Shown here: positions 5,378 through 62,379 of the stretch, piece after piece
How the letters are laid out: the number at the start of each line of letters is the position of its first letter
Numbering within the stretch: the stretch's first letter is position 1
Origin: Planctomycetota bacterium
GTDB lineage: Bacteria > Planctomycetota > Phycisphaerae > FEN-1346
Assembly: GCA_030602705.1 (NCBI GenBank)
Contig: JAUVZF010000005.1
Location: forward strand, 2,663-66,662
Length of the DNA: 64,000 nucleotides
Direction of reading: 5' to 3'
Program-made: the position numbers and the translations under genes
The notes under the pieces: model-generated
What the model saw: only the letters and a program-made list of their open reading frames with translations
Database searches by the model: none
What the model was told of the DNA's origin: nothing

Positions 5378-6085
5378 ATGCAGCAGCGGACCGTCCTGGT
5401 TATCGAAGACGACGACGCCATCCGCACCGGCATCGTCGATACCCTCTCCTACGCCGGCTACACGCCGCTTGAGGCCGCAGACGGCGATGACGGTCTGCGG
5501 CTGGCGCGGGAGGCCGAGTGCGACCTCATTCTGCTCGACCTGGTGCTGCCCGGCCCCGACGGCCTGGAGATCCTGAAGGCGGTTCGGACGGAGCGGCCGA
5601 CGCTTCCGGTCATCATCCTGACTGCCCTCGGCTCGGAGGACGACCGCGTCCAGGGCCTGCGCCTGGGCGCCGACGACTACGTCGTCAAACCGTTCAGCGT
5701 GAAGGAACTCCTGGCCCGGGTCGAGGCCGTCCTTCGCCGCAGCCCCGAGCGGCCGGCCGACGTTACGGTGGTCAAGATTCCGGGCGGGGAGGCCGACCTC
5801 GCTCGCCGCGAGGTCCGCTTCGACGGCGGCGCGCGCGAGGAACTCTCGGAAAGGGAAGCGGCGCTCCTGGAGTACCTGGCCGCCAACGCCGGACGGGCCA
5901 TCTCGCGCGATGAGATCCTGACGCGGGTCTGGCGGCTCGACCCGCGGGGCCTTGCGACCCGCACCATCGACATGCACGTGGCCCGCCTGCGCGAAAAACT
6001 CCACGACGACCCGTCCGAGCCGTCCGTCATCCTGACCGTCCGCGGCACCGGCTACATGTTCGCCGAGCGGAGGGCGAGCGGATGA
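5378..6085 (+). CDS. OmpR-family two-component response regulator.
   Basis: Receiver domain (VLVIEDDDAIR...DLILLDLVLPGPDG...DDYVVKPF) plus a winged-helix trans_reg_C domain (LTVRGTGYMF). Confidence 0.9.
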   Translation: MQQRTVLVIEDDDAIRTGIVDTLSYAGYTPLEAADGDDGLRLAREAECDLILLDLVLPGPDGLEILKAVRTERPTLPVIILTALGSEDDRVQGLRLGADDYVVKPFSVKELLARVEAVLRRSPERPADVTVVKIPGGEADLARREVRFDGGAREELSEREAALLEYLAANAGRAISRDEILTRVWRLDPRGLATRTIDMHVARLREKLHDDPSEPSVILTVRGTGYMFAERRASG

Positions 6086-7884
6086 AACGCCCGTGGCAGA
6101 TCGCACTGGCCTTTGCCCTGGCGCTGGCCGTTCTCCTGGCCGCCATGGGATGGATCAGCCGCGAGGTCCTGCGCCTGGACCGGGCCCAGGCCGAGGCGAA
6201 GCGTCTCGCGCTTCGGGAAGAGAACGTGCGCCTGGCGCTGTGGCGGATGGACTCGGCCGTGGCGCCGCTCTTGGCACGGGAGAACGCGCGCCCGTACTTT
6301 GTGTACGCCTCCTTCTACCTGCCCGAACTCCCATACGCTGAGATGCTCAAGGACGTCTCGACGCATCAGCGGGTGTATGCCCATCTGCCGTCGCCGATCC
6401 TCGTCCAGACGTCGCCGTACATCCGGCTGCATTTTCAGATCGGGCCCGATGGGCGCCTCACCTCGCCGCAGGTCCCGCCTCCATCGGAGGCTGCCGGCGG
6501 ATATGCTCTGCCGAAGTACGTGAGTGCGAAGACCATCGCTGCTGCCAGGGCTCGGCTCGCGCGACTTGAGAAAATCGTCGGCCGCGAGGCGCTCGAGACG
6601 GCGCTCGCCGTGCGCCCCGAGCCGATGCCTCCGATGGCGGCTGCCGCGCAGGCCGATCTGCAACAGGAGATCCAGGACCCGTCCCAGGCTCCTCAGCAGG
6701 AACGGCCGCAGACCCAGGCCCGACGCAACGTTCAGGAATGGCAAGCCAGGTACCAGCAAATGACCATGATGCACCGTGACATCAACGACCAGATCGCCGG
6801 CAACCTGTACGCCTTCGGCGCCGTCGGGGCTAGCGTGATGCGGCCGGTTTGGGTTGGCGGCGAACTGCTCCTGGTGCGTTGGGCACGGATCGACGGCGCG
6901 GATCATATGCAGGGCGTGTGGCTTGCCTGGCCCGCGATTCGCCGGTGGCTCCTCGACGGTGCGGCCGACCTCGTGCCGCAGGCAGACCTGGCGCCCATCA
7001 CCGATGGTCCGGGCGAAGCCCATGCGCGGCGGCTGGCGGCGCTGCCCGTACGACTCGTGCCGGGCAAGGTGCCGGCCGACGCCGTGGACGGCCTCTCGCC
7101 GGTCGTCCTGTCGCTGGTCGTGGCGTGGGCGTGTGTGCTGGCGGGGGCGGCGGCGGTCGGCGTGCTGCTGATGGGGGCCGTTGCCTTGAGCGAGCGCCGC
7201 GGCGATTTCGTCTCGGCCGTCACGCACGAACTGCGCACCCCCCTGACCACGTTCCGCATGTACTCCGAGATGCTCGCCGAAGACATGGTTGCCGACCCAG
7301 ACAAGCGCCGCCGCTACCTTACCACCCTGTGCGCCGAGGCCGAACGCCTGACCCACATGGTCGAGAACGTCCTGGCCTACGCGCGCCTGGAGCGAGGCCG
7401 GGCAAGCGACGAGGCCGAGCGTCTGACGCTCGCGGACCTGGTGGGCCGGGTTCGCGATCGTCTCGAACACCGCGCCAGCGGGACCGGCATGGAACTGGTT
7501 GTCGAGGTGCCCGAAGAGGCCGGCTCCGTCGCCGTATGGGCACGCGTCTCGGCCGTCGAACAGATCCTCTATAACCTGGTGGACAACGCGTGCAAGTATG
7601 CCGCCTCGGCCTCCGACAGGCGCATCCATCTGACGGCGTCTCTCGCCGCCGGCGGCACCGTCCTCACGGTCCGCGACTACGGGCGGGGTATCTCGCGGGC
7701 CGAGGCCCGGCGCCTGTTCCGTCCGTTCTCGAAATCGGCCCGCGAGGCGGCGACCAGTGCACCCGGCGTGGGCCTGGGCTTGGCGCTGGCGCGGCGGCTG
7801 GCGCGCGACATGGGCGGCGACCTGGTCTTTGATCGCTTGGACGCCGAGGGCGCGTCTTTCACCCTCCAACTGCTGTCCGCGTGA
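6082..7884 (+). CDS. Sensor histidine kinase.
   Basis: N-terminal TM segment and a second TM around residues 330-360, a HisKA H-box (VSAVTHELRTPLTT) and an HATPase_c region (NLVDNACKYA...DYGRGIS...GVGLGLALARRLA). Its start overlaps the response-regulator stop (ATGA). Confidence 0.85.
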   Translation: MKRPWQIALAFALALAVLLAAMGWISREVLRLDRAQAEAKRLALREENVRLALWRMDSAVAPLLARENARPYFVYASFYLPELPYAEMLKDVSTHQRVYAHLPSPILVQTSPYIRLHFQIGPDGRLTSPQVPPPSEAAGGYALPKYVSAKTIAAARARLARLEKIVGREALETALAVRPEPMPPMAAAAQADLQQEIQDPSQAPQQERPQTQARRNVQEWQARYQQMTMMHRDINDQIAGNLYAFGAVGASVMRPVWVGGELLLVRWARIDGADHMQGVWLAWPAIRRWLLDGAADLVPQADLAPITDGPGEAHARRLAALPVRLVPGKVPADAVDGLSPVVLSLVVAWACVLAGAAAVGVLLMGAVALSERRGDFVSAVTHELRTPLTTFRMYSEMLAEDMVADPDKRRRYLTTLCAEAERLTHMVENVLAYARLERGRASDEAERLTLADLVGRVRDRLEHRASGTGMELVVEVPEEAGSVAVWARVSAVEQILYNLVDNACKYAASASDRRIHLTASLAAGGTVLTVRDYGRGISRAEARRLFRPFSKSAREAATSAPGVGLGLALARRLARDMGGDLVFDRLDAEGASFTLQLLSA

Positions 7885-9504: not shown

Positions 9505-9533
9505 TTGACTTTTGAATATCTAACCCCTACACT
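9505..9533 (+). promoter_or_regulatory. Sigma-70-like promoter for the serine recombinase gene.
   Basis: -35 TTGACT (9505-9510), 17-nt spacer, -10 TACACT (9528-9533). The SD GGGGGAAAGGAA precedes the ATG at 9568. Confidence 0.4.
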
Positions 9534-9567
9534 CATCGGGGCACGTGAGGGGGAAAGGAAATTGACG

Positions 9568-10173
9568 ATGGAACGGCACACCGCGATTTACGTAAGGGTT
9601 TCAACGCGGCAGCAGAGGGACCGCAGCCAGCGGGATGCGCTGGAGCGGTGGATTGCCGCTCAGAACGGCATCGGGCCGGTCAAGTGGTACGCCGACGAGT
9701 TCACGGGCAAGACCATGAAGCGGCCCGGATGGGCAAGGCTTGAAGCCGCGATGCGTAAGGGACTCGTGACGCGCCTTGTAGTGTACCGGCTGGACCGCCT
9801 GGGCAGGACGCTCTCAGGCTTGGCCGCGCTGTTCGATGAGTTGCAGGAACGCGGCGTTGGGTTTGCATCCTTGACCGAGGGCCTTGATCTGGGCACGCCA
9901 GCAGGACGGCTCGTGGCGGGTGTCCTGGCGAGCGCGGCCCAGTACGAGACGGAGATACGGGCCGAGCGTGTCAAGGCGGGCCAACAAGCCGCCCGCGAGA
10001 GGGGCAAGCGCTGGGGCGGCAGCAAGAAGGGGCGCATCTTGAAACTGACGCCGCAGGTGTTGGACGCGATCAAGGACGGCAGGCAGCGGGGTGAAAGCAA
10101 GACCGCGCTTGCTCGGTTGCTAGGGCTATCGTGGCCGACCGTGCACGAGGCCTGCCGACGGCTGGGGGTGTGA
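9568..10173 (+). CDS. Small serine recombinase (resolvase/invertase family) with a C-terminal HTH.
   Basis: AIYVRVSTRQQ (catalytic Ser), LVVYRLDRLGR, and C-terminal HTH ALARLLGLSWPTVHEA. Start at MERHT with a strong SD. Confidence 0.85.
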   Translation: MERHTAIYVRVSTRQQRDRSQRDALERWIAAQNGIGPVKWYADEFTGKTMKRPGWARLEAAMRKGLVTRLVVYRLDRLGRTLSGLAALFDELQERGVGFASLTEGLDLGTPAGRLVAGVLASAAQYETEIRAERVKAGQQAARERGKRWGGSKKGRILKLTPQVLDAIKDGRQRGESKTALARLLGLSWPTVHEACRRLGV

Positions 10174-11769: not shown

Positions 11770-14604
11770 CTACGCCTCGGTGTCATACACCCTCAACACC
11801 TCATCCCCGTAGTGGTTGATGACCTTGATGGCGATCTTGCCGGTTTCGGGCGGGTCGAAGGGGCGGCTCACGGTCGAGTAGAGGGCCGACCACGCGCCCT
11901 CGTCGATCTCGGCGCGGAGGGCACGCTTCAGTTTGTCGTAGGGCTCGTCGCCGCCGGTGAAGTAGGCGTGGCGGACGAAGAATGACTCGCCGTTGTAGTT
12001 CGTGTCAATGAACCAGCACGCGATGTCGTCGGTCGAGTTCGAGCGGATCTCGCCCGTCGTCGGGTCGTAGATGTCCACGCCCTTGATCTCGACCGTCAGT
12101 TTCCCGTCCTTGGCCTTTTTGACCTCCAGGTCCGGCTCGCCGAAGACCATGAACAGGTTCCCGGCCCCGGTACGCTTGAGGAACTCATCGCCCATCGCCA
12201 GGTCAGCGTTCATACGGCAGGGAAGGACCACAAGTTCCCCGTACCGCTTCGCCTCCTCCGAGACGTGCGGATCGAAGGCGAGGCCGCAGACGATGAGCAC
12301 GTCGAACCCGACGCCCTGCACAGCCTCCTTGGCCGCCTCCTTGATGAGTTCCGGCCCGACCGTGCCGTATTCGGGGCCAATCGAAATGGCCGCGCGCCGC
12401 TCCGTGCCGTCTTTCTCGGTGTAGCGGCCCTCGCCGTGAATCCACACGCCGGGGTACGGGTCGAGTGTGTCAAACTTCAGGCGTTCGTTCTTGATCGTGT
12501 TCTGGACGCCGGCCTTCTTGAGGTTCTCAAGGATGATGTTGCCGAACTCGTTGGGTCCGCGCGTATCGACGGTGACGCCGATCTCCGGCATGCCCTTCTC
12601 GGCCCGCTCCTTCTTCTCTTGGGCGCTGATGGTGCGGTGGGGCGAGAGGCTTTCGACGGTCAACGGCCCGCTCACGCGCACGCGCTTCGTGTCCTCATAG
12701 GGCTGGTCGTAGAGGATCTCGGTGTCACTGGCGCGGGCGATGGAGGCGTCGATCTCGTCCTGGCGTTTCCGCCGCAGCCGCCACCACTCGGCCAGGAGGT
12801 CCTTGGCCTTCTTGGGCCACTCCTTGTCCGCCGTGCGCGGCACCTCCCATTCCTGCCACTTCTTTTTGAGCAGGCTATTGAGTTCCTTTCTGAGTGGTTC
12901 CAGGCGCTCCTCGTACCTGGCGTGGATATCGTTGATCTCCTCGTTGTTGGCGATGGACTTGAGCGTGACGTGCGGCACGCGCTTGTAAACAAAGCCCATC
13001 TTGATGTCGCCTTGGGGCGTTGCCATCGAGGGCGGGCGGCCGGTGACTTCGGCCTCCTTCTTGATGCCTTCGGGCGAGTCGGCGAGGAGATAGTACGGAT
13101 ACCGTGCGGCCATCAGGCGCGTCCGCGCCAGAGCCAGGGCCACGCGGCTCGTGTCGATGGTGATCCAGCGCCGGCCCCACTGTTCGGCAACGTAGGCCGT
13201 CGTTCCACTGCCGCATGTGGGATCGAGAACCAAGTCGCCTGGGTCTGTCGTCATGAGCACGCACCGCTCGATAACCCGGCGTGCCGTTTGCACCACGTAG
13301 ACCTTCCCAGAGGCCGGGGCTGTGTACGCCCATATGTTGTGAATGGGCGAGACGGGGTAGTCAGAGAGTTTCAGCACGTAGCGAACGGTGTTCCCGCCCG
13401 CGTAGGGTTCGAGCCGCTCTGCCCAGTCAAGCCTCCTCATCCCCTCTATGGGGCTCTTCCACGAGCGTCCGGTGGGGGGCCTGTAAGTCCTGCCTCGGCA
13501 GTCGAAGGCGTAGATCCCCGTGTCAAACGGCCCGGCCGGATATAGAGAAGCCAACTGGTAGATCTCCGCCTCGGCTGGGATTTTCTTGGGATCGTTGATC
13601 TGCTCGCGGGCCAGGGCGTGTCTGGTTCCGTCCGGGAGCATGTACTTGTTCCAATGGGAGTCGCCAGCCGTCTCCGTCTGCTCATACAGCCGCCTGAACT
13701 TGGCTGCTCCCTTGTCCTTCGCGTACCAGACGATATAGTCGCAGACGCCCTCAAGCATCGTCCCCCCAAGCGTCATGCTCTTGGTACGGTAGGCGATGAG
13801 TTCCACGAAGTTCTCGCAGCCAAAGACCTCATCCATCAGGCAGCGAACCAAGTGGACATTCTCGGTACCGATCTGAACGAAGACGGAGCCCGTTTCCGTC
13901 AGGAGTTCGCGTGCCGTGACCAGCCGGTCACGCCAGTAGGACAAATAGGAGTGGATGCCGAGTTTCCAGGTGTCGCGAAAGGCCCGGATCTGTTCCGGCT
14001 GACGGGTCGCGTCCTCTACCTTGCCGTCCGTCACCCTTCTCTTACGCGTGGAGACCTGCCAGTTCGACTTGAACTGGATGCCGTAGGGCGGGTCGATGTA
14101 GATCATCTGGACCTGCCCTTTGAGACCCTCCTTCTCGACGAGGCTGGTCATCACGAGGAGCGAGTCGCCCAGGATCATCCGGTTCGACCAGTTCGCCTCG
14201 TGCTGGTAGAACTCGATGAGTTGCTCGAAGTCGATGCCGTTGAAATCGGCAAAGAGTTCCAGTTGCTCCTCGGCCGGCTCTCTCTTCGCCTGGGCCCGCA
14301 CGTCCTCGATGATGGCCTGGGGATGAATCTTCTCCTGGATGTAGATCGGGACCGACGGGGCCGTCAGTTCTTCCTGGTCCTGCTCGTCCTTCCCTTTCCA
14401 CACGAGTTGCGGATCGAGCGACGGATCCCGCGCATAGAGGAGGCCGGGGTAGGTGATCTCCTCCGGCCGCGCCTCGTCCTCGGCCACGAAATCCCGCAGT
14501 TCCTCGGTGGGGATGTTCCTGCGCTTGTCCTTGTGCCGGACAGACTCCACCTTCTTCTTCGATCCGGCGCTTCGCTTCCGTCCGCGTGTGCTCTTTTTGG
14601 CCAT
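11770..14604 (-). CDS. N6-adenine-specific DNA methyltransferase, beta-class (Type III Mod-like order), 944 aa, with a ~450-aa C-terminal extension of unknown function.
   Basis: Motif IV IYIDPPYG lies upstream of motif I LDPTCGSGTTAYVAEQ, about 300 aa apart, which is the TRD position in the beta-class arrangement. Basic N-terminus MAKKSTRGRKRSAGSKKK. Confidence 0.8.
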   Translation of the reverse strand: MAKKSTRGRKRSAGSKKKVESVRHKDKRRNIPTEELRDFVAEDEARPEEITYPGLLYARDPSLDPQLVWKGKDEQDQEELTAPSVPIYIQEKIHPQAIIEDVRAQAKREPAEEQLELFADFNGIDFEQLIEFYQHEANWSNRMILGDSLLVMTSLVEKEGLKGQVQMIYIDPPYGIQFKSNWQVSTRKRRVTDGKVEDATRQPEQIRAFRDTWKLGIHSYLSYWRDRLVTARELLTETGSVFVQIGTENVHLVRCLMDEVFGCENFVELIAYRTKSMTLGGTMLEGVCDYIVWYAKDKGAAKFRRLYEQTETAGDSHWNKYMLPDGTRHALAREQINDPKKIPAEAEIYQLASLYPAGPFDTGIYAFDCRGRTYRPPTGRSWKSPIEGMRRLDWAERLEPYAGGNTVRYVLKLSDYPVSPIHNIWAYTAPASGKVYVVQTARRVIERCVLMTTDPGDLVLDPTCGSGTTAYVAEQWGRRWITIDTSRVALALARTRLMAARYPYYLLADSPEGIKKEAEVTGRPPSMATPQGDIKMGFVYKRVPHVTLKSIANNEEINDIHARYEERLEPLRKELNSLLKKKWQEWEVPRTADKEWPKKAKDLLAEWWRLRRKRQDEIDASIARASDTEILYDQPYEDTKRVRVSGPLTVESLSPHRTISAQEKKERAEKGMPEIGVTVDTRGPNEFGNIILENLKKAGVQNTIKNERLKFDTLDPYPGVWIHGEGRYTEKDGTERRAAISIGPEYGTVGPELIKEAAKEAVQGVGFDVLIVCGLAFDPHVSEEAKRYGELVVLPCRMNADLAMGDEFLKRTGAGNLFMVFGEPDLEVKKAKDGKLTVEIKGVDIYDPTTGEIRSNSTDDIACWFIDTNYNGESFFVRHAYFTGGDEPYDKLKRALRAEIDEGAWSALYSTVSRPFDPPETGKIAIKVINHYGDEVLRVYDTEA

Positions 14605-15310: not shown

Positions 15311-15907
15311 CTATGCGTCCGGAGGGGAACCGCCGGGCAGGCGGGATACGGCGATGTCTTCGGGAAGGCCCTCGTGGACCCGGTGGACGAGTCCGATGAG
15401 CAGGAGGCCCGTCCCGTCGTCCGGCAGCGTCGCGTCGATCCTCTTGCGTATGTATGCATCGCGCCGCTTCAGCAGGTCGTCGGCCTCCTTCTGACAGGCC
15501 TTGCCGGCGGCCCGTTCCTGAGCGGCTGCGGCGAAGACGTTCCGCATGAGTTCGTATTCTTCGAGGAGGAGTTTCGGCGCCTCGGTTCCGACGAGGGTGG
15601 CTCCCTGGTCGACGAGCCAGAGGATCAACTGGTGGTTCCGGCTGTCGCGGCGCGCCAGGTCGGTGACGATCTGGAGTTCTTTGCCACACACAGGGAGACC
15701 GTCCTGGTAAACGTAGGTGCGCGCGTAATCCAGACCGAAGCCGTCAATGCGTTCCCGCAGGTTGCGCCAGAACTGTTCGATGGTCTCGATGTGTTCTTGC
15801 CACTCGCGCTGAGTGTACCTGGAAAGGAACTCAGCCTTGGCCCCCGGCAGGAGCGAACCCATATCGGCCCCCGTGTGGACGATCGGGACGTGGATCAGTC
15901 TTCTCAC
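15311..15907 (-). CDS. Hypothetical protein (198 aa).
   Basis: ORF with high GC3 and no recognisable motifs. Confidence 0.45.
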   Translation of the reverse strand: MRRLIHVPIVHTGADMGSLLPGAKAEFLSRYTQREWQEHIETIEQFWRNLRERIDGFGLDYARTYVYQDGLPVCGKELQIVTDLARRDSRNHQLILWLVDQGATLVGTEAPKLLLEEYELMRNVFAAAAQERAAGKACQKEADDLLKRRDAYIRKRIDATLPDDGTGLLLIGLVHRVHEGLPEDIAVSRLPGGSPPDA

Positions 15908-18930: not shown

Positions 18931-18977
18931 GCAGGGCGACTCCTTTGATCAGGCTGAGTGCAAACTTGGTGCCACAC

Positions 18978-52891: not shown

Positions 52892-54088
52892 CTACGCGAA
52901 ATAGACCGAACCTTCCTTCTCCACCTTGCCTTCCTCAACCAGTTCCCGGGCAACGGGAAGGAGGTCGCGCCAACTCTCGAAGCCCAACCGCTCGGCCACG
53001 GCGGCCAGTTTCATGCCGTCTTCGCTCCCGGCGATCAGGGCCAGGACCTTCCGTTTCAACTCAGCGGGTGAAGGCCCTTCCTTGGCGCCTTTGGCAGGCT
53101 TGGGCTTCGCGGGCGCCGGCCTGCCGTCGCCGCCGTGGACATGTCTCATCTTCGCGAGCAGGTCCTGCCACGCCGCCGCCGTCTCGGCACGGTCCGCAGC
53201 AGCCTCTGCCTTGAGTTCGACGTTCTCTTTGTGGAATTGGTCCAGAAGGCCCGCCACCTCCTGTGCACGCGCCTTGTCCTGTTCGGCCGCCTCGGCGATC
53301 AGTGCGGTGTTCTGCTGCGCGAGATCCTTGACCGTGGCGTCAGCCTCCGCCCTGATATCAAGATTCTCCTGATGGAACTGGGTGACCAGTTCCGTCATCT
53401 CCTGGGCCCTGGCCTTGTCCTCCTCGGCGGCCTCAGCCTTCAGGGCGACGTTCTGCTGCGCGAGGTCCTTGACGGTCGCGTCAGCCTCCGCCTTCAGGTC
53501 CACGTTCTCTTTGTGGAATTGGGTGACCAGTTCCGTCATCTCTTGTGCCCGCGCCTTGTCCCCCTCGGCGGCCTCAGCCTTCAGGGCGACGTTCTGTTGG
53601 GCGAGGTCCTTGACCGTGGCGTCAGCCTCCGCCTTCAGGTCCACGTTCTCTTTGTGGAATTGGTCCACAAGACCCGCCATCTCCTGTGCCCGCGCCTTGT
53701 CCTCTTCGGCGGCCTCGGCGATCAGGGCGGCGTTCTGCTGCGCGAGATCCTTGACCGTGGTGTCAGCCTCCGCCCTGATATCAAGATTCTCCTGATGGAA
53801 CTGGGTGACCAGTTCCGCCATCTCCTGCGTCCGCGCCTTGTCTTCCTCGGCGGCCTCGGCGATCAAGGCGACGTTCTGCTGCGCGAGATCCTTGACCGTG
53901 GCGTCAGCCTCCGCCTTCAGGTCGACGTTCTCTTTGTGGAATTGGTTCAGAAGGTCCGCCACCTCCTGCCTCCTGGCCTTGCTCTCCTCGGCGGCTTCGG
54001 CGATAATGCGCGGCACGTCCTGCTTGCGCTGCGTGTGACAGGCAGCCATCTCCTCGGCCAGGCTCTTTAGATCCGTTGCGTTCGACAT
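52892..54088 (-). CDS. GvpC-like repeat protein (about seven 45-aa repeats) with a C-terminal wHTH-like domain, directly downstream of gvpA.
   Basis: Repeats of AEAAEEDKARAQEM(A/T)ELVTQFH(K/Q)ENVDLKAEADATVKDLAQQNVAL(I/K), with matching 135-bp DNA periodicity at 53150-54050. Start taken at MSNATDL after GGAGGA. Confidence 0.6.
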   Translation of the reverse strand: MSNATDLKSLAEEMAACHTQRKQDVPRIIAEAAEESKARRQEVADLLNQFHKENVDLKAEADATVKDLAQQNVALIAEAAEEDKARTQEMAELVTQFHQENLDIRAEADTTVKDLAQQNAALIAEAAEEDKARAQEMAGLVDQFHKENVDLKAEADATVKDLAQQNVALKAEAAEGDKARAQEMTELVTQFHKENVDLKAEADATVKDLAQQNVALKAEAAEEDKARAQEMTELVTQFHQENLDIRAEADATVKDLAQQNTALIAEAAEQDKARAQEVAGLLDQFHKENVELKAEAAADRAETAAAWQDLLAKMRHVHGGDGRPAPAKPKPAKGAKEGPSPAELKRKVLALIAGSEDGMKLAAVAERLGFESWRDLLPVARELVEEGKVEKEGSVYFA

Positions 54089-54254
54089 TGCCTGTTCCTC
54101 CATCCTGCATCGACTTGACGTTACTGACTCAGGAGAGGGGTGCCCGTTACACGCCTCTTCGCAAAGACTCCAGGCTGCGCCCGAACCGCCTGCCTTGCAT
54201 CGGCCGGTGCAGGAGGGCCCGTGTCGGACGCTCCTACCGCTCGGGGGCAACCCA

Positions 54255-54281: not shown

Positions 54282-54488
54282 TTACGCCTCTTCGGGAAGA
54301 AGCCCCACGGCCTCGGCGTACTTCAGGAACGTCTCGACGCCGGCGATGACGATCCGCGCCTCGATGGCCAGGAGTTCGATCCCGACGAGCGACACCCGCA
54401 CCCAGGCATCGATGACGATGCCCTTGTCGAGGATGCGGTCCACGACTTCGACCAGACTGGAACTCGCGATTGCTTTCTCGACAGCCAT
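54282..54488 (-). CDS. gvpA: Major gas vesicle structural protein GvpA.
   Basis: [63 protein letters not shown] is near-identical to the GvpA consensus. Start at MAVEK. Confidence 0.92.
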
Positions 54489-54924
54489 TTCCGTCTCCCT
54501 TCCTAAGAACGTGTGCGTACATAGCGATACGGCGAGCCTGCACCGAGCAGGCTCCACCTCCGGAGGTTATCAGGTAAGATCCGACGTGCCGGCGGCGCGC
54601 GGCGGCGGCGCTTATCGCCTCGGCGCCGCCTCGAGAGCGTTTGGGAACGAGGAAGAAGGGAATAAGCCGCCCCGGCCCGGCCGCATCGGACGGCCGGCGG
54701 GGCGGGCGACTGATCACCGCGACTTTACTCCTACGCATCTCCATCCCAGCGTTCCCAGCGCTTACGGCATCGAGACGTGCATCCTTGCAACCACTAATTG
54801 ACGGGTTGCGGGTGCAACTTAAAGGTTTTTCTGCTTTTCATCAAAAATTCCGGCCGAGCCAATCACGCATGCACAATCGTCGTACCCGCCCGTCCTCGCC
54901 GGCGTCCTTCCGCGGCCGCCGGTG

Positions 54925-54950
54925 CCTTCTGTGTGTGTGTGGGGGGGTGT
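54925..54950. repeat. (GT)5 followed by a G7 homopolymer, CTGTGTGTGTGTGGGGGGGTG, in the gvpA leader.
   Basis: Read from the sequence. A simple-sequence tract with slipped-strand potential. Confidence 0.5.
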
Positions 54951-55059
54951 GCGTCGCGGCCGCGCGTGGGGGACGCGGCCGCGACGACGTGGGGTCCAAC
55001 GCGTGCAGGCCGTTGGTCATGTCGATGCGGGCTCCAGTGCTCATTGCTGATTCCAGAAG

Positions 55060-55078
55060 GGGCAAACGCCGTGCCATC
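55060..55078 (-). promoter_or_regulatory. Consensus sigma-54 (-24/-12) promoter, TGGCAC-GGCGT-TTGC, oriented toward gvpA.
   Basis: Plus-strand GCAAACGCCGTGCCA at 55062-55076 is the reverse complement of TGGCACGGCGTTTGC. A sigma-54 activator gene sits immediately upstream. Confidence 0.5.
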
Positions 55079-55247
55079 GGGAGCGAGCGCGTCGCGGCGC
55101 CAAGCATGCGGCCATATCAGTATTGGCAGAGGCGATGCGCGACGATGGCCGTTCGCGCGGCAGGAGCGGAAGCACCTGCGGTTGTGGAGAGCGTTCCCCA
55201 TAGTTGCGGAATCCATTCCATAGGCGGCAGGGGCTGCCCATCCGGCG

Positions 55248-56291
55248 TTATGCCCGAGAGATGCCGTAATCCCTTGCCTTGGTGAGGAGGGTTTTGTAGT
55301 CGATCCGGAGGAGCCGAGCGGCCTTGGCCTTGTTTCCGCCGGTCCGCCTGAGGACCTCGGCGAGGATCTGCCGTTCGACGCGGGCCACGACTCGCCGCAC
55401 GACTTCCTTGAAGGAAGCGCTGCCCCCGATCACCTCGTTGATGTCGGGCGGCGCGGCATCGGCCTCCAGGGGCGCCCCGGAGATGTCCAGGTGGTCGGGT
55501 TCGATGCGGGTATCGGCCATGAGGACGCCCCGGCGGACGACGTTGCGGAGTTCGCGGACGTTGCCCGGCCACGGGTAGTTCAGGAGCCGCTCGATGGCGG
55601 CCTCGGAGAGCCCGCGGACGTCCTTTTCGAGTTCGCGGTTCGTCAGTTCGACAAACCGGTTCGCTAGTGGGATGATGTCGGCCCGGCGCCGGCGCAGCGG
55701 CGGCACCTCGATGTGGAACTCGTTCAGGCGGTGATACAGGTCGCGGCGAAAGCCGTCGGCCCGAACGAGCGAGCCGACATCGCGATTGGTGGCGGCGATG
55801 ACGCGGATGTCCACCTCGATGCCGTCTGTGCTGCCGACGCGCCAGATGCGCCTCTCCTGGAGCGCGCGGAGGAGCCTTGGCTGGAGGTCAAGGGGCAGGT
55901 TCGAGACCTCATCGAGGAAGAGCGTCCCGCCGGAGGCCAGTTCGAACTTGCCCGGCCGTGCCCGGTCCGCCCCCGTAAAGGCGCCCTTCTCGTGCCCGAA
56001 CAGTTCGCTCTCGATGAGGGTCTCGGGTATCGAGCCGCAGTCCACCGCGATGAACGGCGCCGAGGCGCGGCGGCTGATGCGGTGAATCGCCCGGGCGACG
56101 ACTTCCTTTCCGGCGCCGGTCTCGCCGGTGATGAGCACCGTAAAGGACGTGGGGGCCACCCGCTCGACGGTCGCGAAGACCGCCTGCATCGCCTCGCTTG
56201 ATCCGATGACGTCGCGCGTGGAGATGCCGCTGTCCAGGCAGGGGGCTTCTGCGACGTTCTCCTGGATGGTGCCGCTCGTTGCCGTAGTCAT
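55248..56291 (-). CDS. Sigma-54-dependent transcriptional activator, PspF-like (AAA+ domain plus C-terminal HTH, no receiver or sensor domain).
   Basis: [33 protein letters not shown] (GAFTGA motif), and C-terminal [22 protein letters not shown]. Start taken at MTTATSGT; the upstream part of the listed ORF is probably non-coding. Confidence 0.85.
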
Positions 56292-57010
56292 GAGGAGCCC
56301 TTTCCGTTGCTCGCCATGAGATTGTGGCCGGCTCTCGACGTACGCAATCTGCCGTGGGAGCAGGCGACGAACACGGGACAGGCGCGGCGTGAGGGCGGAC
56401 AGAGCACCACCGCTGAAGAACGGCCGGACCTCTGGTCCAGGCATGCGCTCAACATTCTCTCCCATCCCAGCAGCGCCAACTAGGACGGTTATCGGACGTT
56501 CTCCGCCGACGGCTTGAGGAATTCTTGCACGGATTCGGAGTCTGTGAGACGGAGCCGCACCAGGCGTCTTGGGGAAGACGAATCAGGGCGGGCACGTTCT
56601 TCGCATCTCCGGCGGCGCTGCCGACGAGACACACGAACTCTCTCGCCCCGGCGCCGGAGGCGTCTGTTCCAACAAGGACCGAACGCGAGAACCTAGCACA
56701 CGCCCTGCCCGCCTGTCCGAAGTCCGGACCCGTTCCGGGGAAGACCGCCGGGTGGATGGACTCCAGGAAGATAGAGTGGTGGTATCGGCGGGCGAGGCGC
56801 CTCGCCCGGGCCTGCCGACGGCCAGATACCCCAGGACGCCCAGCACGAGGACGGCACGATGTGGGTCTGGGACTTCGAGGTCACGCTGCTGTAGCCGCAT
56901 CACACATCTGCCTTCGCCCCGGTCATAGCCATGGCTGGGGCGCTCTCCGGGCCTTCGGGCCAGCCTTGACCGTTGCAGCAGAGAATCGGCCAACGACTTC
57001 CATCTGAGGC

Positions 57011-58081
57011 TTGGCGCGCCGCCCGGCGCCGGTTAGACTCCGCCATCACAGTCCAGGCGATGGGAATGGCACACGTCTGGCGAGGGGCCCTGCGTTGGCA
57101 GACGACTTCTCCGACACGATCATTGACGCCATCGACCGCGAGGTGCTCTCGCTTCTGCGCACGGCGTCGCCGGACTGGAGCCCGGCAGACGTCGACCGGA
57201 TGCCACACAACCGTGCCGTGGCCTTGGCCTTGCTGGTCCAAAGCCACCTCGTTGAAATGCGTTTGCACGTCCGGGCGTGGGGAGAAGGGACGCCGCGGGT
57301 CGTCCACGCCGACTGCATTGTCTCCGGCCGCTGGCGCGACGTCCTGCCCGAGGAGGTGCGCCGCGCGATTCCGGATTTCCCAGGCCATGTCATGGTCCAG
57401 CCGGAGCCGCAGTTTGAGTACCGCCTGACGCTCGAGGGCCAGGAGGCCCAGCGGGACGCCACGAGGGCACAGGGCCCCGACCTCATCGGCTTCCTCATCG
57501 CCATCAAACGGGTGCTTCCGGGCCGGGTGCAGGTCCGTATCACAGGCTTTGGCGAGGAGACACATGAGCAGATCCCGACGGCAGTCGCCTCGTCGCAGGC
57601 GAGTGCGAGTGTGGGGGATGTTGACATTAGCCTCGCGCCGGTCTTCAACATCGACGTCTCGAAGGTCGTCCATCCCCAGGAGCAGACGGGGCACGGCAGA
57701 GCCGAGGCGCCGGAAGAAAGCCATCCTGCTCCGGAAGCCACTGATGGCACGAAAGGGCGGCCGCTGGAATCTGAGGAGTCCGACGATCCCGTGGACAGGC
57801 TGCCGAACCGGGTGCGTCGGGCCTATGCTCAGTATCTGCTCGCCGCGGAGCAGTACGAGGGCAACGCAGGCGGACCACCAACGGACCGCCAGTTGCACGC
57901 TTGGCTGAAGCGCCACTCCGAGGAGCGTCTGCCAGCCTTCGAGACGTGGGCGAGATACCTCCGGGATGCTCGACAGGCCTTGGGTACGCAGAAGAACTCC
58001 CCGCTCGCGGGCCGCGAACACGGCCGGTCCGTTGTTTCCTGCCACGACGTTGAGCCGCTCCGCCGACACGAGGTGGACTAA
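57011..58081 (+). CDS. Hypothetical protein (356 aa; start uncertain).
   Basis: High GC3 in this frame. The antisense ORF 56900..58069 was judged spurious. Confidence 0.4.
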   Translation: MARRPAPVRLRHHSPGDGNGTRLARGPALADDFSDTIIDAIDREVLSLLRTASPDWSPADVDRMPHNRAVALALLVQSHLVEMRLHVRAWGEGTPRVVHADCIVSGRWRDVLPEEVRRAIPDFPGHVMVQPEPQFEYRLTLEGQEAQRDATRAQGPDLIGFLIAIKRVLPGRVQVRITGFGEETHEQIPTAVASSQASASVGDVDISLAPVFNIDVSKVVHPQEQTGHGRAEAPEESHPAPEATDGTKGRPLESEESDDPVDRLPNRVRRAYAQYLLAAEQYEGNAGGPPTDRQLHAWLKRHSEERLPAFETWARYLRDARQALGTQKNSPLAGREHGRSVVSCHDVEPLRRHEVD

Positions 58082-58267
58082 AGCGGACCCCTCCGCAGAA
58101 ATCCCCCCTCCTTCCCGCCTGACCGAAGTGCCTTAGCATCAGCAGCTTACTGTTCCCTGGTGCGGATTCCGCGCCGGCATCCGCCCCCCATCCGCCCATC
58201 CGTTTTATGGACTGTGGAATCGCGCGTGCGGAATCACACACGGATGGTTCCGAAAGGAGAAGCGGCC

Positions 58268-58474
58268 ATGATCGGCACGAAGCAGGCGGCGGCCATCCTG
58301 GGTGTCCGGCCGGGGACGCTGACCCGAGCGATATGGGAAGGGCGCATCCCTGCACCCGCGAAGGGGCCCGGCGGGGCCTACGTCTGGAGCCGCCGGGACA
58401 TCGAGCGCGCCAGTTGGGTGCTACGGCACTGCAGCGCCGCCAATGTCCTGCCCGAGGAACGGGGTGACCGGTGA
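58268..58474 (+). CDS. Excisionase/AlpA-like HTH DNA-binding protein (~68 aa).
   Basis: MIGTKQAAAILGVRPGTLTRAIWEGRIPAPAKGPGGAYVWSRRDIE is the HTH_17/Xis-like pattern. Confidence 0.5.
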   Translation: MIGTKQAAAILGVRPGTLTRAIWEGRIPAPAKGPGGAYVWSRRDIERASWVLRHCSAANVLPEERGDR

Positions 58475-58734
58475 AAACGGACACCTCCAAGACCAAACCC
58501 GTCGGCCGGTTTACGGTCTGGGTCGAGCGCGCCGAACCGTCCCCTGAAAGCCAGGAGCGCTGGTCCCGTCGCGCCGAGGCGTTGTGCGCATGGCTTGTGC
58601 GCCGGTGGGAGGAGAAGCGATCAGAAAGGGAATGCGCATGAGACAGGTGGAACGCGCCTGGTCTGGTTTGAGGGGTGGATCTCGCTTGTGCAGCGGGCGG
58701 CCACGGCTGCGGTGTGGATGATCGAGGGGGCGCG

Positions 58735-59382
58735 ATGAGCATCCTGGAGACGGCCACGTCGTATCGCCGCACCGGCCTGTGCGTCCTGCCGGCCATTGCG
58801 ACCGAAAAACGGCCGGCCCTCTCCTCCTGGAAGCCGTACCAGACCCGTCTGCCGACCGACGACGAACTGCGCGCCTGGTTCACGGACAGCCAGGTCATGT
58901 GCCTAGTTACCGGGGCCGTCAGCGGCAACCTCGAGATGCTCGACTTCGATGGCGGCGGTGCACTGTACGGTCCGTGGGCCGAACTCGTCATGAGTGAAGC
59001 CCCGGGGCTTCTGGAGCGGCTCGTCATTGAGCGCTCGCCGTCGGGTGGTTGCCACGTCGTTTACCGGTCCGAAGTGGCCGTGTCCGGCAACCAGAAACTT
59101 GCCCAGCAGCTCGTCGACGGGCGGCCGGTCACGCTCATCGAAACGCGTGGTGAAGGTGGCCTCTTCCTGTGCGACCCGACTCCCGGCTACGAACTCAAGC
59201 AAAGCCGGTTCGAGGACATGCCAACCCTCTCGGCCGTTGAGCGCGACGTCCTGATCAAGGCGGCCGGGGCGCTGAACGAGGTTATCCCCGGGCCCGACTC
59301 GCCTCGTGTGCCATCCGAGCCATGCGGTCGGCCCGGCGGGAGAGTGCCGTCTGAGTCCGCCGGTCGTGCCGTTGACCTGTGA
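58735..59382 (+). CDS. Bifunctional primase-polymerase (Prim-Pol) N-terminal-domain protein.
   Basis: GLCVLPAIATEKRPALSSWKPYQT...NLEMLDFDGGG...LIETRGEGGLFLCDPTPG matches the Prim-Pol motif pattern. Start MSILETAT after GAGGGGG. Confidence 0.65.
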   Translation: MSILETATSYRRTGLCVLPAIATEKRPALSSWKPYQTRLPTDDELRAWFTDSQVMCLVTGAVSGNLEMLDFDGGGALYGPWAELVMSEAPGLLERLVIERSPSGGCHVVYRSEVAVSGNQKLAQQLVDGRPVTLIETRGEGGLFLCDPTPGYELKQSRFEDMPTLSAVERDVLIKAAGALNEVIPGPDSPRVPSEPCGRPGGRVPSESAGRAVDL

Positions 59383-59851
59383 GGGCCAGCACCGCGACGA
59401 TACGCCCGGCCACTGGCCCATCGTGTTCGCGTCGGGCTGGTGCGGCCAGTATCGACCGCGGGAATCGCCGGAGGCGAGGCCGGCCGAGCCCGAACCTGAG
59501 AAAACCGGGGCACGGGAGCGGTTGTGCAGACCTGTAAGGCGGTCGGGAAGGCACCGAGAGGACGATCAGGAAGACGCTGAAGGCGAACCGACGCTCATCA
59601 TCGACGGCAACGCCCTGACGATCCGCTGGAACAACTTGGCCGCAGGCGGCATCTGCCCCGTCTGTGGCGGACCGACGGACCCGCAGGAGGGACCGGAACT
59701 GTGCATTCGTGGAACGTGGAAGGTCGTCTGCCACGAGTGCGGCAAACGGCTGAATCCTGAGCTGATGGCAACACTCCAGGAGATGTGGGACGATCCGGCA
59801 TGGCCGCACCATGCGTACCTGTTCGGCCGGGCCGAGACGCCTTCGCGCTGA
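59306..59851 (+). CDS. Hypothetical Zn-finger protein (CPVCGG...CHECG). It overlaps the Prim-Pol 3' end in another frame, so the start is uncertain.
   Basis: ORF with a C4 motif. It may be a frameshifted continuation of the Prim-Pol gene or a separate gene. Confidence 0.35.
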   Translation: MCHPSHAVGPAGECRLSPPVVPLTCEGQHRDDTPGHWPIVFASGWCGQYRPRESPEARPAEPEPEKTGARERLCRPVRRSGRHREDDQEDAEGEPTLIIDGNALTIRWNNLAAGGICPVCGGPTDPQEGPELCIRGTWKVVCHECGKRLNPELMATLQEMWDDPAWPHHAYLFGRAETPSR

Positions 59852-60052
59852 GGTGGGACCCTGATGGGCGGCGTTGCCGGCCACGAGGGCCCGTCCGCTC
59901 CAGGAGTTCCGACAGCGATGATGGATATGTGGGGAATAGGTACTTCGCCGCCGGCGGTCCGTTCTCGATGGCCGCGGGAACAATCGCAGGCCATCTTTTA
60001 GTTTGTTTGTTAGCGCGCGAAAACGCCGCGATGTTAGCGCAGGAGGCCAGAC

Positions 60053-60514
60053 ATGGCATTGACGCCGCACATGGAGACCATCCTGACGGCCGTGCTGCAC
60101 GACATGCGCCGGATCGAAGCCGTCCCGGACCGCCCCCTGCCCAGCATGGACCGGGACACATGGCGTACGCTCTGCCAGGAGAAGCAGGAACTCAGCCTCC
60201 ACGGCGTGCGCTACGACTTGGCTCGGTGGCTCGGCTATCCGCCCACGCGGTCCGACTCGGCAGTCTTCTCCCGGGCGCTTCGGCGCATGGAGGACCTGGG
60301 CCTCCTGGTCCGTGTGAACTACTGGGGCGGCCGACGGACAACGCACCTACGGCTCACGCCCCTGGGGAGGCGCGTCGTGGAGCAGTTCATGGCTGCGGAC
60401 AACGCAGCGGAGGGGGCCGGCACAGAGGTGAACAACGGCGTGCCCATCGACTGGGCCCACCCCGACCTCTTGCCCCTGGAGCCGCCGCCGGAAGACGGGT
60501 TGGCCGACAATTAA
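60053..60514 (+). CDS. Hypothetical wHTH-like protein (153 aa).
   Basis: ...RALRRMEDLGLLVRV... helix-wing pattern. Preceded by an AT-richer region with duplicated GTTAGCGC. Confidence 0.45.
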   Translation: MALTPHMETILTAVLHDMRRIEAVPDRPLPSMDRDTWRTLCQEKQELSLHGVRYDLARWLGYPPTRSDSAVFSRALRRMEDLGLLVRVNYWGGRRTTHLRLTPLGRRVVEQFMAADNAAEGAGTEVNNGVPIDWAHPDLLPLEPPPEDGLADN

Positions 60515-60588
60515 GTGGATTCCCCCGGCCCCGTGAGTAAAGGTCCAGGTGCGGCCGGGTCGGCCGGCACGGGACAAGGAGAAGCGAC

Positions 60589-62379
60589 ATGGCAGCCAAG
60601 CGCAAGGTCAGGGCGGTCGGATATGCCCGACGCTCGACGGACATGCAAGAGCGGTCCATCCCGGACCAGAAGGCCTACGTCCAGCGCTGGGCCGAGGAAC
60701 ATGGCTACACGATCCGCCGGTGGTTCACGGACGACGCCGTCTCGGGCACGTCCACCAAAGGCCGCGAGGCCTTCGAACGATTCATCCACGACGCCGAGAA
60801 CAGCCGCGACTTCGACGCGGTGCTTTGCTACGACATTTCCCGCTTCTCCCGCGGCGGTACGAACGAGATTGGCTACTACCTGTATCGCCTTGAGCAGGCC
60901 GGCGTCCGGGTCATCTTTTGTGCGGAGGCCCTTCCCGATGACGACGGCGGCGAACTCCTGTTGGGCGTCAAGTCGTGGCAGGCTCATCAGTACAGCGTGA
61001 AGTTGTCGCGCGACTGCATCCGAGGGGCCGTCTCCAGCATCACGGTCAAACGCAGCGCCCCCGGCGGCCGGGCGCCCTACGGCTACGACAAGCGGTTCCT
61101 GACGGCCGACGGCCAGGTCCTTCGGACCATCCGGTACCTGCCCGACGGGCGCAAACGGGAGTTCGACGCCCAGGGCCGCCACGTCCGGTTCATCCCGGGC
61201 TCGGAGGGGGTCGGTAAGGTGAAGTCCGACGTCGTTCGCTACGTGCCCGGCGATCCGCAGTACGTGAAGACCGTCCGCCGCATCTTCGAGATGTGCTGCC
61301 AGGGCTACGGGTTCCGCTGCACCGCCATCGCCCTGAATGACGACGGTATCCCGAGCCCGACCGGTGGCCGCTGGAACCACAGGCAGGTCAAACTGATGCT
61401 CACCAACCCCGTCTACCGCGGCGCGCTCTGCTACAACAAAACAAGCCAGGCGAAGATACACGGAATCGCGGCCGACGGTCGGCCCCGCACGAGGCAGGGC
61501 AAGGGCACGGAACGAAACAGCCGCGACCGCTGGCTCGTCGTCGAGGATGTGCACGAGCCGCTCGTGAGCAAGGAGGTCTTCGAGAAGGCCCGGGCCGAGA
61601 TGGCCTGCCGACGCGACGCCAAGGGTGAGGCGCGGCCGACGCACCGATACCTCTTGTCGGGCCTGCTCAAGTGCACCCACTGCCGTCTGAACTTCTGGGG
61701 CGCCATCCTGACGCTGTACCCCAAGAACGCTCGCCGCCGCTATTATGTGGACGCCGGGTACAGGAAGTACGGGCCGAAGGTGTGCAAGTCGACCAGCATC
61801 CAGGCCGAGCCGCTGGACCGCTGGGTGCTGGGCAAGGTCCGCGAGGTCATCCTGGCCGACGCCGAGGGGACTCAGGCGGCGGTGGACGCGTTCGTCAAGG
61901 CCGTCATGGCCAAGCAGAAACGCGGTGCGGATACGTCGGCCATCGAGAAGGAATTGGCGGCCGTGAACAGGCGCATCAAGACCACGGTCGCCATGCTGGC
62001 CGACCACGACTTGGCGGACATGGACGAACTCAAGGTGGCGCTGGTGGACCTGAAGCGTCAGCGCGAACTGCTGGAGGCCAGGAAGGAGAAGGCGGCGGGC
62101 AAGAAGGGCGAACGGCTTGACGAGGCCGCGCTGCGGAAGTGGGCGATGGAAAAACTCGACCGGCTGGGCGAGGCCCTGGACGGGAACCTCTCGCCGCTGG
62201 AGACGCGGCGGCTGGTCCACAGTTACGTGAGCCACATCGACATCGACCCGTACGCCTGCACCGGCACCATGTTCATGGTGCCCGACGCCCTGGCCGCCCT
62301 CGAGGCCGAATCTATCAGACGAGTGAACGTATCCTCAAGAAGATTGCCGTGGTGTGTGTCGAACCAACTCGGGACATAG
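60589..62379 (+). CDS. Large serine recombinase (integrase).
   Basis: N-terminal resolvase domain (AVGYARRSTDMQ with catalytic Ser, VLCYDISRFSR), recombinase domain, zinc ribbon (CTHCRLNFWG...C), and C-terminal coiled coil. Confidence 0.85.
   Translation: MAAKRKVRAVGYARRSTDMQERSIPDQKAYVQRWAEEHGYTIRRWFTDDAVSGTSTKGREAFERFIHDAENSRDFDAVLCYDISRFSRGGTNEIGYYLYRLEQAGVRVIFCAEALPDDDGGELLLGVKSWQAHQYSVKLSRDCIRGAVSSITVKRSAPGGRAPYGYDKRFLTADGQVLRTIRYLPDGRKREFDAQGRHVRFIPGSEGVGKVKSDVVRYVPGDPQYVKTVRRIFEMCCQGYGFRCTAIALNDDGIPSPTGGRWNHRQVKLMLTNPVYRGALCYNKTSQAKIHGIAADGRPRTRQGKGTERNSRDRWLVVEDVHEPLVSKEVFEKARAEMACRRDAKGEARPTHRYLLSGLLKCTHCRLNFWGAILTLYPKNARRRYYVDAGYRKYGPKVCKSTSIQAEPLDRWVLGKVREVILADAEGTQAAVDAFVKAVMAKQKRGADTSAIEKELAAVNRRIKTTVAMLADHDLADMDELKVALVDLKRQRELLEARKEKAAGKKGERLDEAALRKWAMEKLDRLGEALDGNLSPLETRRLVHSYVSHIDIDPYACTGTMFMVPDALAALEAESIRRVNVSSRRLPWCVSNQLGT

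Follow-up and report, generated by a model that had tools for sequence, protein, structure and literature searches.

Predicted GvrA/sigma-54-type control region of a gas-vesicle gene cluster in a Planctomycetota genome

Genes and features upstream of gvpA

We analyzed a 64-kb stretch of Planctomycetota DNA (contig JAUVZF010000005.1; hereafter, the window), in which a minus-strand gas-vesicle cluster begins with gvpA (start codon at 54488, stop codon at 54282), the gene for the major structural protein of gas vesicles. Read toward gvpA, the region before it holds a gene for a sigma-54 enhancer-binding protein, two candidate upstream activating sequences (UASs), a -24/-12 promoter and a predicted leader of about 562 nt (Table 1). 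We report these features, their positions and their conservation as observed. The loci used for comparison were retrieved as the genomic contexts of homologs of the activator and of the GvpN encoded in the cluster; those compared for the promoter are L005-L009, L093, L010, L090 and L094-L096.

The activator gene encodes a protein in which a Pfam scan finds Sigma54_activat (PF00158, E 5.9e-70), AAA_lid_14 and HTH_8, a Fis-type helix-turn-helix (HTH) at residues 303-338, and no other domain. Walker A, GAFTGA and Walker B (LFLDE) motifs lie at residues 56, 103 and 124. The protein therefore has the two parts by which bacterial enhancer-binding proteins are recognized, an AAA+ sigma-54 interaction domain and a C-terminal HTH, and the scan agrees with an earlier note, made from the letters of the sequence, that had described it as lacking any receiver or sensor domain. 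That note had also called the protein PspF-like, which holds for its architecture but not for family membership, as it scores 278 bits against the PspF equivalog TIGR02974, whose cut-off is 443.55 bits. An in-frame alternative ATG is present at 56465; the likely start is ATG 56291, because dozens of homologs of 347-350 amino acids (aa) span 99-100% of the short form.

The closest homologs of the activator are 59-78% identical, measure about 303-350 aa, all lack a receiver and all are encoded in gas-vesicle clusters; the nearest named ones come from Planctomycetota metagenome-assembled genomes (MAGs) and one Acidobacteriota MAG. For the ATP synthase beta subunit encoded in the window, the nearest named homolog, 82% identical, is also from a Planctomycetota MAG. 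Their usual gene order runs from a protein of about 195 aa and the activator through GvpH/Hsp20, a CDC48-type ATPase, GvpL and GvpF to a promoter and then gvpA and onward to gvpN. Receiver-containing relatives, encoded in L010, L094 and L096, are 474-477 aa long and 54-55% identical to the window activator over the shared part, and each is adjoined by genes for a PAS histidine kinase and a stand-alone receiver. Because the window activator has no receiver or sensor domain of its own, its output probably depends on how much of it is present or on a trans-acting factor and not on its own phosphorylation. Control in trans is conceivable because L092 pairs a receiver-less activator with a PAS kinase and a stand-alone receiver, and regulation by a partner protein is plausible.

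The uncharacterized protein of about 195 aa is encoded immediately upstream of the activator in Planctomycetota-like, Spirochaetota and Deltaproteobacteria loci and may be a functional partner of the activator. A match to TraB/PrgY/GumN, weak and below cut-off, is seen in one copy. The L010 and L007 copies are 47% identical to each other, and the window homolog, 40-48% identical, lies 40 kb from the activator. A separate scan of genome contigs with the activator returned 80 loci, 79 of them without gvpA, where the back-translated patterns had picked up common AAA+ motifs; the only gas-vesicle locus among them was L010.

The promoter matches TGGCAC-N5-TTGC with exact spacing on the gvpA strand, with GG at -24 and GC at -12, just as the earlier note had claimed. 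Exact matches to this pattern are expected 0.15 times per 64 kb; two are observed, and none of 100 shuffles contained two or more. Each fetched gas-vesicle locus that reaches gvpA has a single exact match, immediately upstream of gvpA, so that the pattern precedes gvpA in seven lineages, one of them represented by a Spirochaetota MAG. The same 15-mer is found in the close relatives L004, L090 and L091 (90-94% nucleotide identity to the window), and across the gas-vesicle cluster no other good sigma-54 site was found on its strand. Conservation of the element in seven lineages strongly supports reading TGGCACGGCGTTTGC as a real, conserved sigma-54 promoter of gvpA, with a predicted transcription start near 55050.

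Sites for enhancer-binding proteins usually lie about 80-150 bp upstream of sigma-54 promoters. The candidate sites in the window fall at -147 to -108, and both their position and their sequence are conserved across lineages. When lineages are anchored on the promoter, they show a palindromic core, GGAA-N4-TTCC, mostly extended to TTCCATAG. In the window, L090, L005, L007, L093 and L010, the distance from the start of the core, GGAA-N4-TTCC(ATAG), to the T of TGGCAC is 121-143 bp; for site 1 of the window it is 143 bp. L094 and L096 each have a pair of degenerate sites, between -150 and -105. The site 1 sequence is unique in the window at 0 mismatches, and the degenerate site 2 is 95-98% identical in L090, L004 and L091. 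From the stop codon of the activator to the promoter, the window is 90-98% identical to L090, above much of the leader, and this range holds for the UAS-promoter segment in L004 and L091 as well. GGAA-N4-TTCC(ATAG), whose distance from the promoter is fixed, thus emerges as a candidate operator motif.

Table 1 Features of the gvpA upstream region and corresponding features in related loci.
Feature	Record	Position	Strand	Remarks
gvpA, major gas-vesicle structural protein, 68 aa	Window	54282..54488	minus	PF00741 and NCBIfam GvpA, above cut-off
Receiver-less sigma-54 enhancer-binding protein (GvrA-like), 347 aa	Window	55248..56291	minus	Pfam domains, motifs, homologs
Candidate UAS site 1, CTATGGAATGGATTCC	Window	55208..55223	minus	Conserved core GGAA-N4-TTCC
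Candidate UAS site 2, degenerate, CTATGGGGAACGCTCTCCAC	Window	55184..55203	minus	20 bp downstream of site 1
Sigma-54 (-24/-12) promoter, TGGCACGGCGTTTGC	Window	55062..55076	minus	TGGCAC-GGCGT-TTGC, exact consensus
Predicted gvpA 5' leader, about 562 nt	Window	54489..55050	minus	Non-coding, conserved in blocks (L090 alignment)
Leader block	Window	55050-54960		88-98% identity to L090; holds perfect 13-bp hairpin
Leader block	Window	54960-54860		60-70% identity to L090; holds repeat tract
Leader block	Window	54845-54725		88-100% identity to L090; AT-rich block
Leader block	Window	54740-54640		68-80% identity to L090; GC hairpin and pyrimidine tract
Leader block	Window	54640-54489		90-100% identity to L090; final 150 nt before ATG
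Perfect 13-bp inverted repeat, CGTCGCGGCCGCG / CGCGGCCGCGACG	Window	54952..54986	minus	z = -2.8; identical in L090
(GT)5G7 compound repeat	Window	54931..54947	plus	C7(AC)5 on transcript; most variable leader stretch
Conserved AT-rich block	Window	54725..54845	minus	Hairpin GTTGC-ACCC-GCAAC; direct repeats GATGC and CGCTGGGA; GGGAAC-N15-CGTA motif
Conserved 5' untranslated region stem-loop, GAGCCUGC-UCGGU-GCAGGCUC	Window	54534..54554	minus	46 nt upstream of gvpA ATG
Protein of about 195 aa	Window	15311-15907	minus	
Protein of about 195 aa	L002	5141-5743		
Protein of about 195 aa	L003	5117-5707		
Protein of about 195 aa	L005	8733-9317		
Protein of about 195 aa, further copy	L007	9130-9720		
Protein of about 195 aa, further copy	L010	8892-9590		
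Protein of about 195 aa, further copy	L011	16-486		
Promoter and gvpA	L005/L006	T of TGGCAC 15637; gvpA ATG 15756		
Promoter and gvpA	L007-L009	T of TGGCAC 15491; gvpA ATG 15726		
Promoter and gvpA	L093	T of TGGCAC 15388; gvpA ATG about 15533		
Promoter and gvpA	L010	T of TGGCAC 16717; gvpA ATG 16813		Rectinemataceae MAG, Spirochaetota
Promoter and gvpA	L094/L095	T of TGGCAC 5020; gvpA ATG 5145		
Promoter and gvpA	L096	T of TGGCAC 4077; gvpA ATG 4268		

A long leader conserved in blocks

The distance from the predicted start to gvpA is similar in L090 (about 599 nt) and far shorter in the L094 and L096 lineages (about 99 and 165 nt, respectively). The earlier note had described a leader of roughly 570 nt without a convincing open reading frame (ORF), and our analysis bears this out: leader ORFs have no Pfam match, and the candidates lose their frame in L090 through indels of 1, 4 and 11 nt. 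The search for riboswitch and small-RNA covariance models that the note had proposed gave, at a permissive threshold, only Rfam hits at chance level (E of at least 0.15; 11-22 bits against gathering thresholds of 70-100), and the fold of the whole leader is not unusual relative to shuffles (z-score of -1.4). Conservation with respect to L090 alternates between strongly and weakly conserved segments. The perfect 13-bp inverted repeat near the 5' end of the leader does not qualify as a canonical terminator, as no U-run follows it.

The AT-rich block is the only such stretch of the region, with a GC content of 38% at 54790-54849 versus 64% for the window. Both half-sites that had been pointed out in it are present (TTGCAACC at 54785-54792 and GGTGCAAC at 54811-54818), and we regard the block as a candidate site for protein binding or for an internal promoter. 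In the antisense direction, positions 54803-54820 of the plus strand contain a small hairpin, GGGTTGCGGGTGCAAC, with a T-rich run after it. This hairpin has a terminator-like score and could either stop an antisense transcript or simply be a by-product of the conserved block.

The stem-loop near the 3' end is the only part of the leader shared with L094/L095 and L096, and it also occurs in L090. It is fully paired in all four sequences, which differ by one compensatory change from C-G to U-A, one wobble and one paired deletion, and its local alignment scores of 30 and 43 exceed the shuffle maxima of 25 and 32. Because covariation across four sequences is not significant (177 of 500 shuffles), we call it simply a conserved hairpin. 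In 15 sources, a covariance model built from the stem-loop found no further copy. In L090, positions 380-440 of the minus strand, corresponding to 54560-54525 of the window, carry a 30-nt tandem duplication of the stem-loop unit, GGAGCCTGCTCGGTGCAGGCTCGCCGTATCG, and two adjacent copies of the hairpin therefore precede gvpA in that relative.

About 400 nt of the leader are specific to the window lineage, and the conserved AT-rich block within this addition probably contributes a further layer of control. We looked for the origin of the added sequence in several places. It has no similarity above shuffles to the gvrC-gvpA intergenic region or to gvrB and gvrC of L094 and L096, of which it might have been a remnant, and the leader has no other copy in the window, as a dispersed repeat would. 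The conserved leader block resembles the UAS at 17 of 24 nt, a likeness of which we estimate about four instances by chance in this region, so it does not stand as a duplicated operator. Likewise, CGGCACGTCGGATCT at 54591, considered as a decayed ancestral promoter, is at chance level.

The (GT)5G7 tract that the earlier note had placed at 54931-54947 is there, but its proposed role, a length-variable switch that toggles expression by slippage, is not supported. On the predicted transcript, the tract would span about +103 to +119; it follows the -12 element by about 115 nt and precedes the ATG by 440 nt. It is neither within an ORF nor between core promoter elements, and at this position, slippage could change neither a promoter spacer nor a reading frame; no known slippage mechanism fits. 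What recommends a contingency repeat is that the tract is the sole compound repeat of its kind in the window, that its (TG)6 is the only non-CG dinucleotide repeat of at least 9 nt there, and that its location is regulatory. G7 is short, however, and is one of five G7/C7 runs in the window; the 100 nt that contain the tract are also the least conserved of the leader, and L090 lacks the tract altogether instead of having it at another length, with both flanks kept around the non-repetitive CACCTTCCCC----TGCCCGGAGACC. Its length is the same in L001, a Logan assembly of the sample from which the window derives. An exact look-up of the window GvpA gave no match, and an identical GvpN was found only in a 4.4-kb Logan contig that ends short of the leader. 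We consider the toggle very unlikely and the tract most likely neutral.

Proposed mechanism and alternative explanations

We are fairly confident that this region forms the regulatory front end of a gas-vesicle cluster controlled in the GvrA/sigma-54 manner. The activator would bind, through its C-terminal HTH, one or two sites of the GGAA-N4-TTCC type about 110-147 bp upstream of the promoter, situated just 3' of its own stop codon. Sigma-54 RNA polymerase would wait on TGGCACGGCGTTTGC as a closed complex, which the AAA+ ring, by means of its GAFTGA loop and ATP hydrolysis, would reach by DNA looping and open. Transcription would then start near 55050, cross the leader of about 562 nt and continue through gvpA, the GvpC-like gene, gvpN and the genes beyond, and the transcript would present the stem-loop shared with related clusters just upstream of the ribosome-binding site. 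Activator binding, dependence on sigma-54, the start site and all functions of the leader are what we infer from the features described above.

Several points weigh against this explanation. The leader is three to eight times longer than those of other lineages (70-209 nt), and both its start site and continuous transcription across its 562 nt are predictions. The conserved AT-rich block could hide a promoter of a type that lies outside our scans. The binding sites are deduced from conservation, orthology with GvrA is judged from domain content and synteny rather than from comparison with the GvrA sequence, and the 64-kb window contains no RpoN box.

It is extremely unlikely that the -24/-12 element arose by chance or is vestigial and that the activator controls something else. 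Such motifs do occur elsewhere in the window, as the second exact match at 18960-18974 illustrates, but at the computed expectation chance would hardly explain why exact matches recur in equivalent positions in seven lineages, in every case with a palindrome upstream. A more serious alternative, which we still judge unlikely, is that gvpA is transcribed mainly from a second promoter in or just after the 54845-54725 block, recognized by sigma-70 or an extracytoplasmic function (ECF)-type factor, the sigma-54 promoter being an additional input or a relic. The identity of this AT-rich block to L090, set between flanks of 60-80%, is consistent with such a promoter, as are its base composition and the distance of 96-235 nt between promoter and ATG in the relatives. 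The invariant part of the block also contains the GGGAAC-N15-CGTA motif, which resembles ECF promoters. Its spacing is one base under the usual 16-17, however, and by chance a match this good would be only mildly unlikely. Scans for sigma-70-like and sigma-54 sites, which do not extend to ECF or further promoter classes, found none of the former on the minus strand of the region and, at any match quality, no second GG-N10-GC. The 90-98% conservation of the UAS and promoter is contrary to a relic. An internal promoter would not conflict with a functional sigma-54 promoter and is compatible with the mechanism that we propose; gvpA would then have two inputs, not one.

The lineage-specific leader might instead act as a cis-acting RNA, a small RNA or a peptide that gates gvpA after initiation, through attenuation, control of stability or masking of the ribosome-binding site. 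Block-wise conservation of a non-coding sequence would suit this role, and so would several local structures: the perfect 13-bp hairpin, a GC-rich hairpin followed by a pyrimidine tract (54704-54643), a CCUCC predicted in both the window and L090 to pair with the Shine-Dalgarno region, and the 3' stem-loop with its compensatory change. Apart from the 13-bp hairpin, however, fold energies resemble those of shuffles (z of -1.4 for the whole leader and of -0.56 to -1.27 for the other segments of the window), the leader matches no Rfam family and no ORF keeps its frame. Covariation can draw on a single orthologous leader, and for the stem-loop on the four sequences whose statistics are given above. 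On balance, post-initiation gating by the leader seems distinctly improbable to us.

Relation to known systems

Control of the gvpA1 operon by GvrA and sigma-54 in Serratia sp. ATCC 39006 is the closest known system (Tashiro 2016, PMC4982088; PMC11778176) and is reportedly also treated by Ramsay 2011. In this strain, transcription of gvpA1 requires the NtrC-like GvrA and RpoN, and the start mapped by 5' rapid amplification of cDNA ends lies downstream of a consensus sigma-54 site (PMC4982088, PMC11778176); an rpoN transposon mutant loses both gas vesicles and transcription of the gvpA1 operon (PMC11778176). These results contradict the view in the earlier note that sigma-54 control of gas vesicles is not standard, and an operon led by gvrA has been described as the usual pattern in Proteobacteria (PMC4982088, PMC11778176). 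Like Serratia, the window encodes a sigma-54 enhancer-binding protein inside the gas-vesicle cluster and has a consensus -24/-12 promoter before the first gvpA, as in the GvrA scheme (PMC4982088). Its relatives L005-L009 and L010 have an activator-gvpH-AAA ATPase-gvpF-gvpF operon like gvrA-gvpH-gvpZ-gvpF2-gvpF3 of Serratia, and L010, L094-L096 and L092 encode a PAS histidine kinase and a stand-alone receiver like GvrB and GvrC (PMC9501494, PMC4982088).

The window departs from the Serratia scheme in that its activator has no receiver domain, the activator gene lies directly upstream of gvpA, the leader measures about 562 nt and the host is a member of the Planctomycetota, not a proteobacterium. 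The GvrA-type operon arrangement seen in L005-L009 and L010 is not found here: the activator is followed by the promoter and gvpA, and Hsp20/GvpH-CDC48-GvpL-GvpF lie 7-11 kb downstream. No gvrB- or gvrC-like genes were found beside the activator or elsewhere among the scanned ORFs of the window, those outside 22.4-25 kb and 32.7-34.6 kb; the only two-component pair among these ORFs, an OmpR-type regulator and a kinase (5378-7884), is outside the cluster.

Receiver-less enhancer-binding proteins are known from PspF and from HrpR and HrpS, which are under the control of partner proteins (PspA and HrpV, respectively). The window activator resembles them in consisting of AAA+ and HTH domains only, an architecture that leaves no room for control by an N-terminal sensor. 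It differs in its low PspF equivalog score, in having gas-vesicle and mobile-element genes as neighbors rather than a psp or hrp context, and in having no identified PspA- or HrpV-like partner; the only conserved neighbor, in other loci, is the protein of about 195 aa. With NtrC-type activators it shares the AAA+ and HTH_8 core, and its receiver-containing relatives in L010, L094 and L096 have the exact NtrC architecture; the window activator itself lacks the receiver and falls far below the NtrC equivalog cut-off.

The structural cluster of the window is closest to those of L094-L096, with which it shares its gene order and a GvpN that is 84% identical. In L094-L096, a receiver-containing activator, a kinase and a stand-alone receiver precede the operator and promoter; in the window and L090, a receiver-less activator of another group is followed directly by operator and promoter. 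This contrast, which extends to a long leader on one side and a short one on the other, amounts to a natural experiment in which the regulatory input to the same structural operon has been rewired. One could imagine that a two-component input was lost in this lineage and that the added leader of about 400 nt took over signal integration, as an RNA- or DNA-level sensor or a docking platform for regulators that could gate a constitutively active sigma-54 activator after initiation; we regard that whole scenario as quite improbable.

The control logic of the window is thus the known one of GvrA and RpoN in a new host and is largely ordinary, and nothing here overturns current understanding. Of modest interest are three features of this lineage: its activator lacks a receiver, the kinase and receiver genes have been lost, and the leader is expanded and in part conserved. 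The comparison extends the GvrA/sigma-54 logic, for which Serratia has been the only experimental case, to genomes of uncultured Planctomycetota-like and Spirochaetota bacteria, and a compact activator without a sensor, together with its own promoter, could serve in engineered gas-vesicle reporter cassettes.

Gas-vesicle supercluster and flanking genes

In the window, gvpA is followed by a GvpC-like gene with 47-aa repeats, a gene for a DnaJ-type zinc-finger protein, gvpN and onward. The gene after gvpA (52892-54250, minus strand) contains 5.3 tandem copies of a 141-nt (47-aa) repeat at 53251-54004; it is GvpC-like by position and repeat structure and has no Pfam GvpC match. Among the Logan contigs of the sample, L001 ends in gvpA and L097 starts in the repeat gene. 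The whole forms a very large gas-vesicle supercluster at about 27850-54490, all on the minus strand, that comprises gvpA, the GvpC-like gene, two gvpN, three GvpF/L, GvpG, GvpO, GvpK and two further GvpA/J-type genes, as well as Hsp20/GvpH, a CDC48-type ATPase, two double ArsA-like ATPases (765 and 683 aa), Hsp70 and three DnaJ-type zinc-finger proteins. Just outside it are genes for a further zinc-finger protein, the fourth, and for two B12/radical-SAM enzymes.

The second exact TGGCAC-N5-TTGC match in the window (18960-18974, minus strand) lies in a 48-bp gap directly 3' of a DnaJ-type zinc-finger gene and 30 nt upstream of an ORF (18930-18349, minus strand) that has a good ribosome-binding site and encodes 193 aa with a coiled coil and a probable winged helix. 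The ORF has no homolog among the fetched loci. No GGAA-N4-TTCC occurs within 400 bp upstream of this site, which may be served by a different activator.

Upstream of the activator and divergent from it, the plus strand at 57011-62379 carries a mobile-element-like set consisting of an uncharacterized gene of 328-356 aa, an HTH_17 (excisionase-like) gene, a Prim-Pol gene and a large serine recombinase gene (60589-62379). A segment of 760 bp in the window (56706-57465) is missing from L004 and L091; its junction shows an 11-bp overlap, and terminal inverted repeats are absent. Upstream of 56653, L090 is wholly divergent. Toward the other end of the window, between housekeeping genes and the gene group at 15-20 kb, we found a small serine resolvase (9505-10173, plus strand) and a 944-aa N6/N4 DNA methylase (11770-14604, minus strand). 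Together with the recombinase at 60.6 kb, the resolvase and methylase suggest that mobile or recombination functions lie on both sides of the gas-vesicle region.

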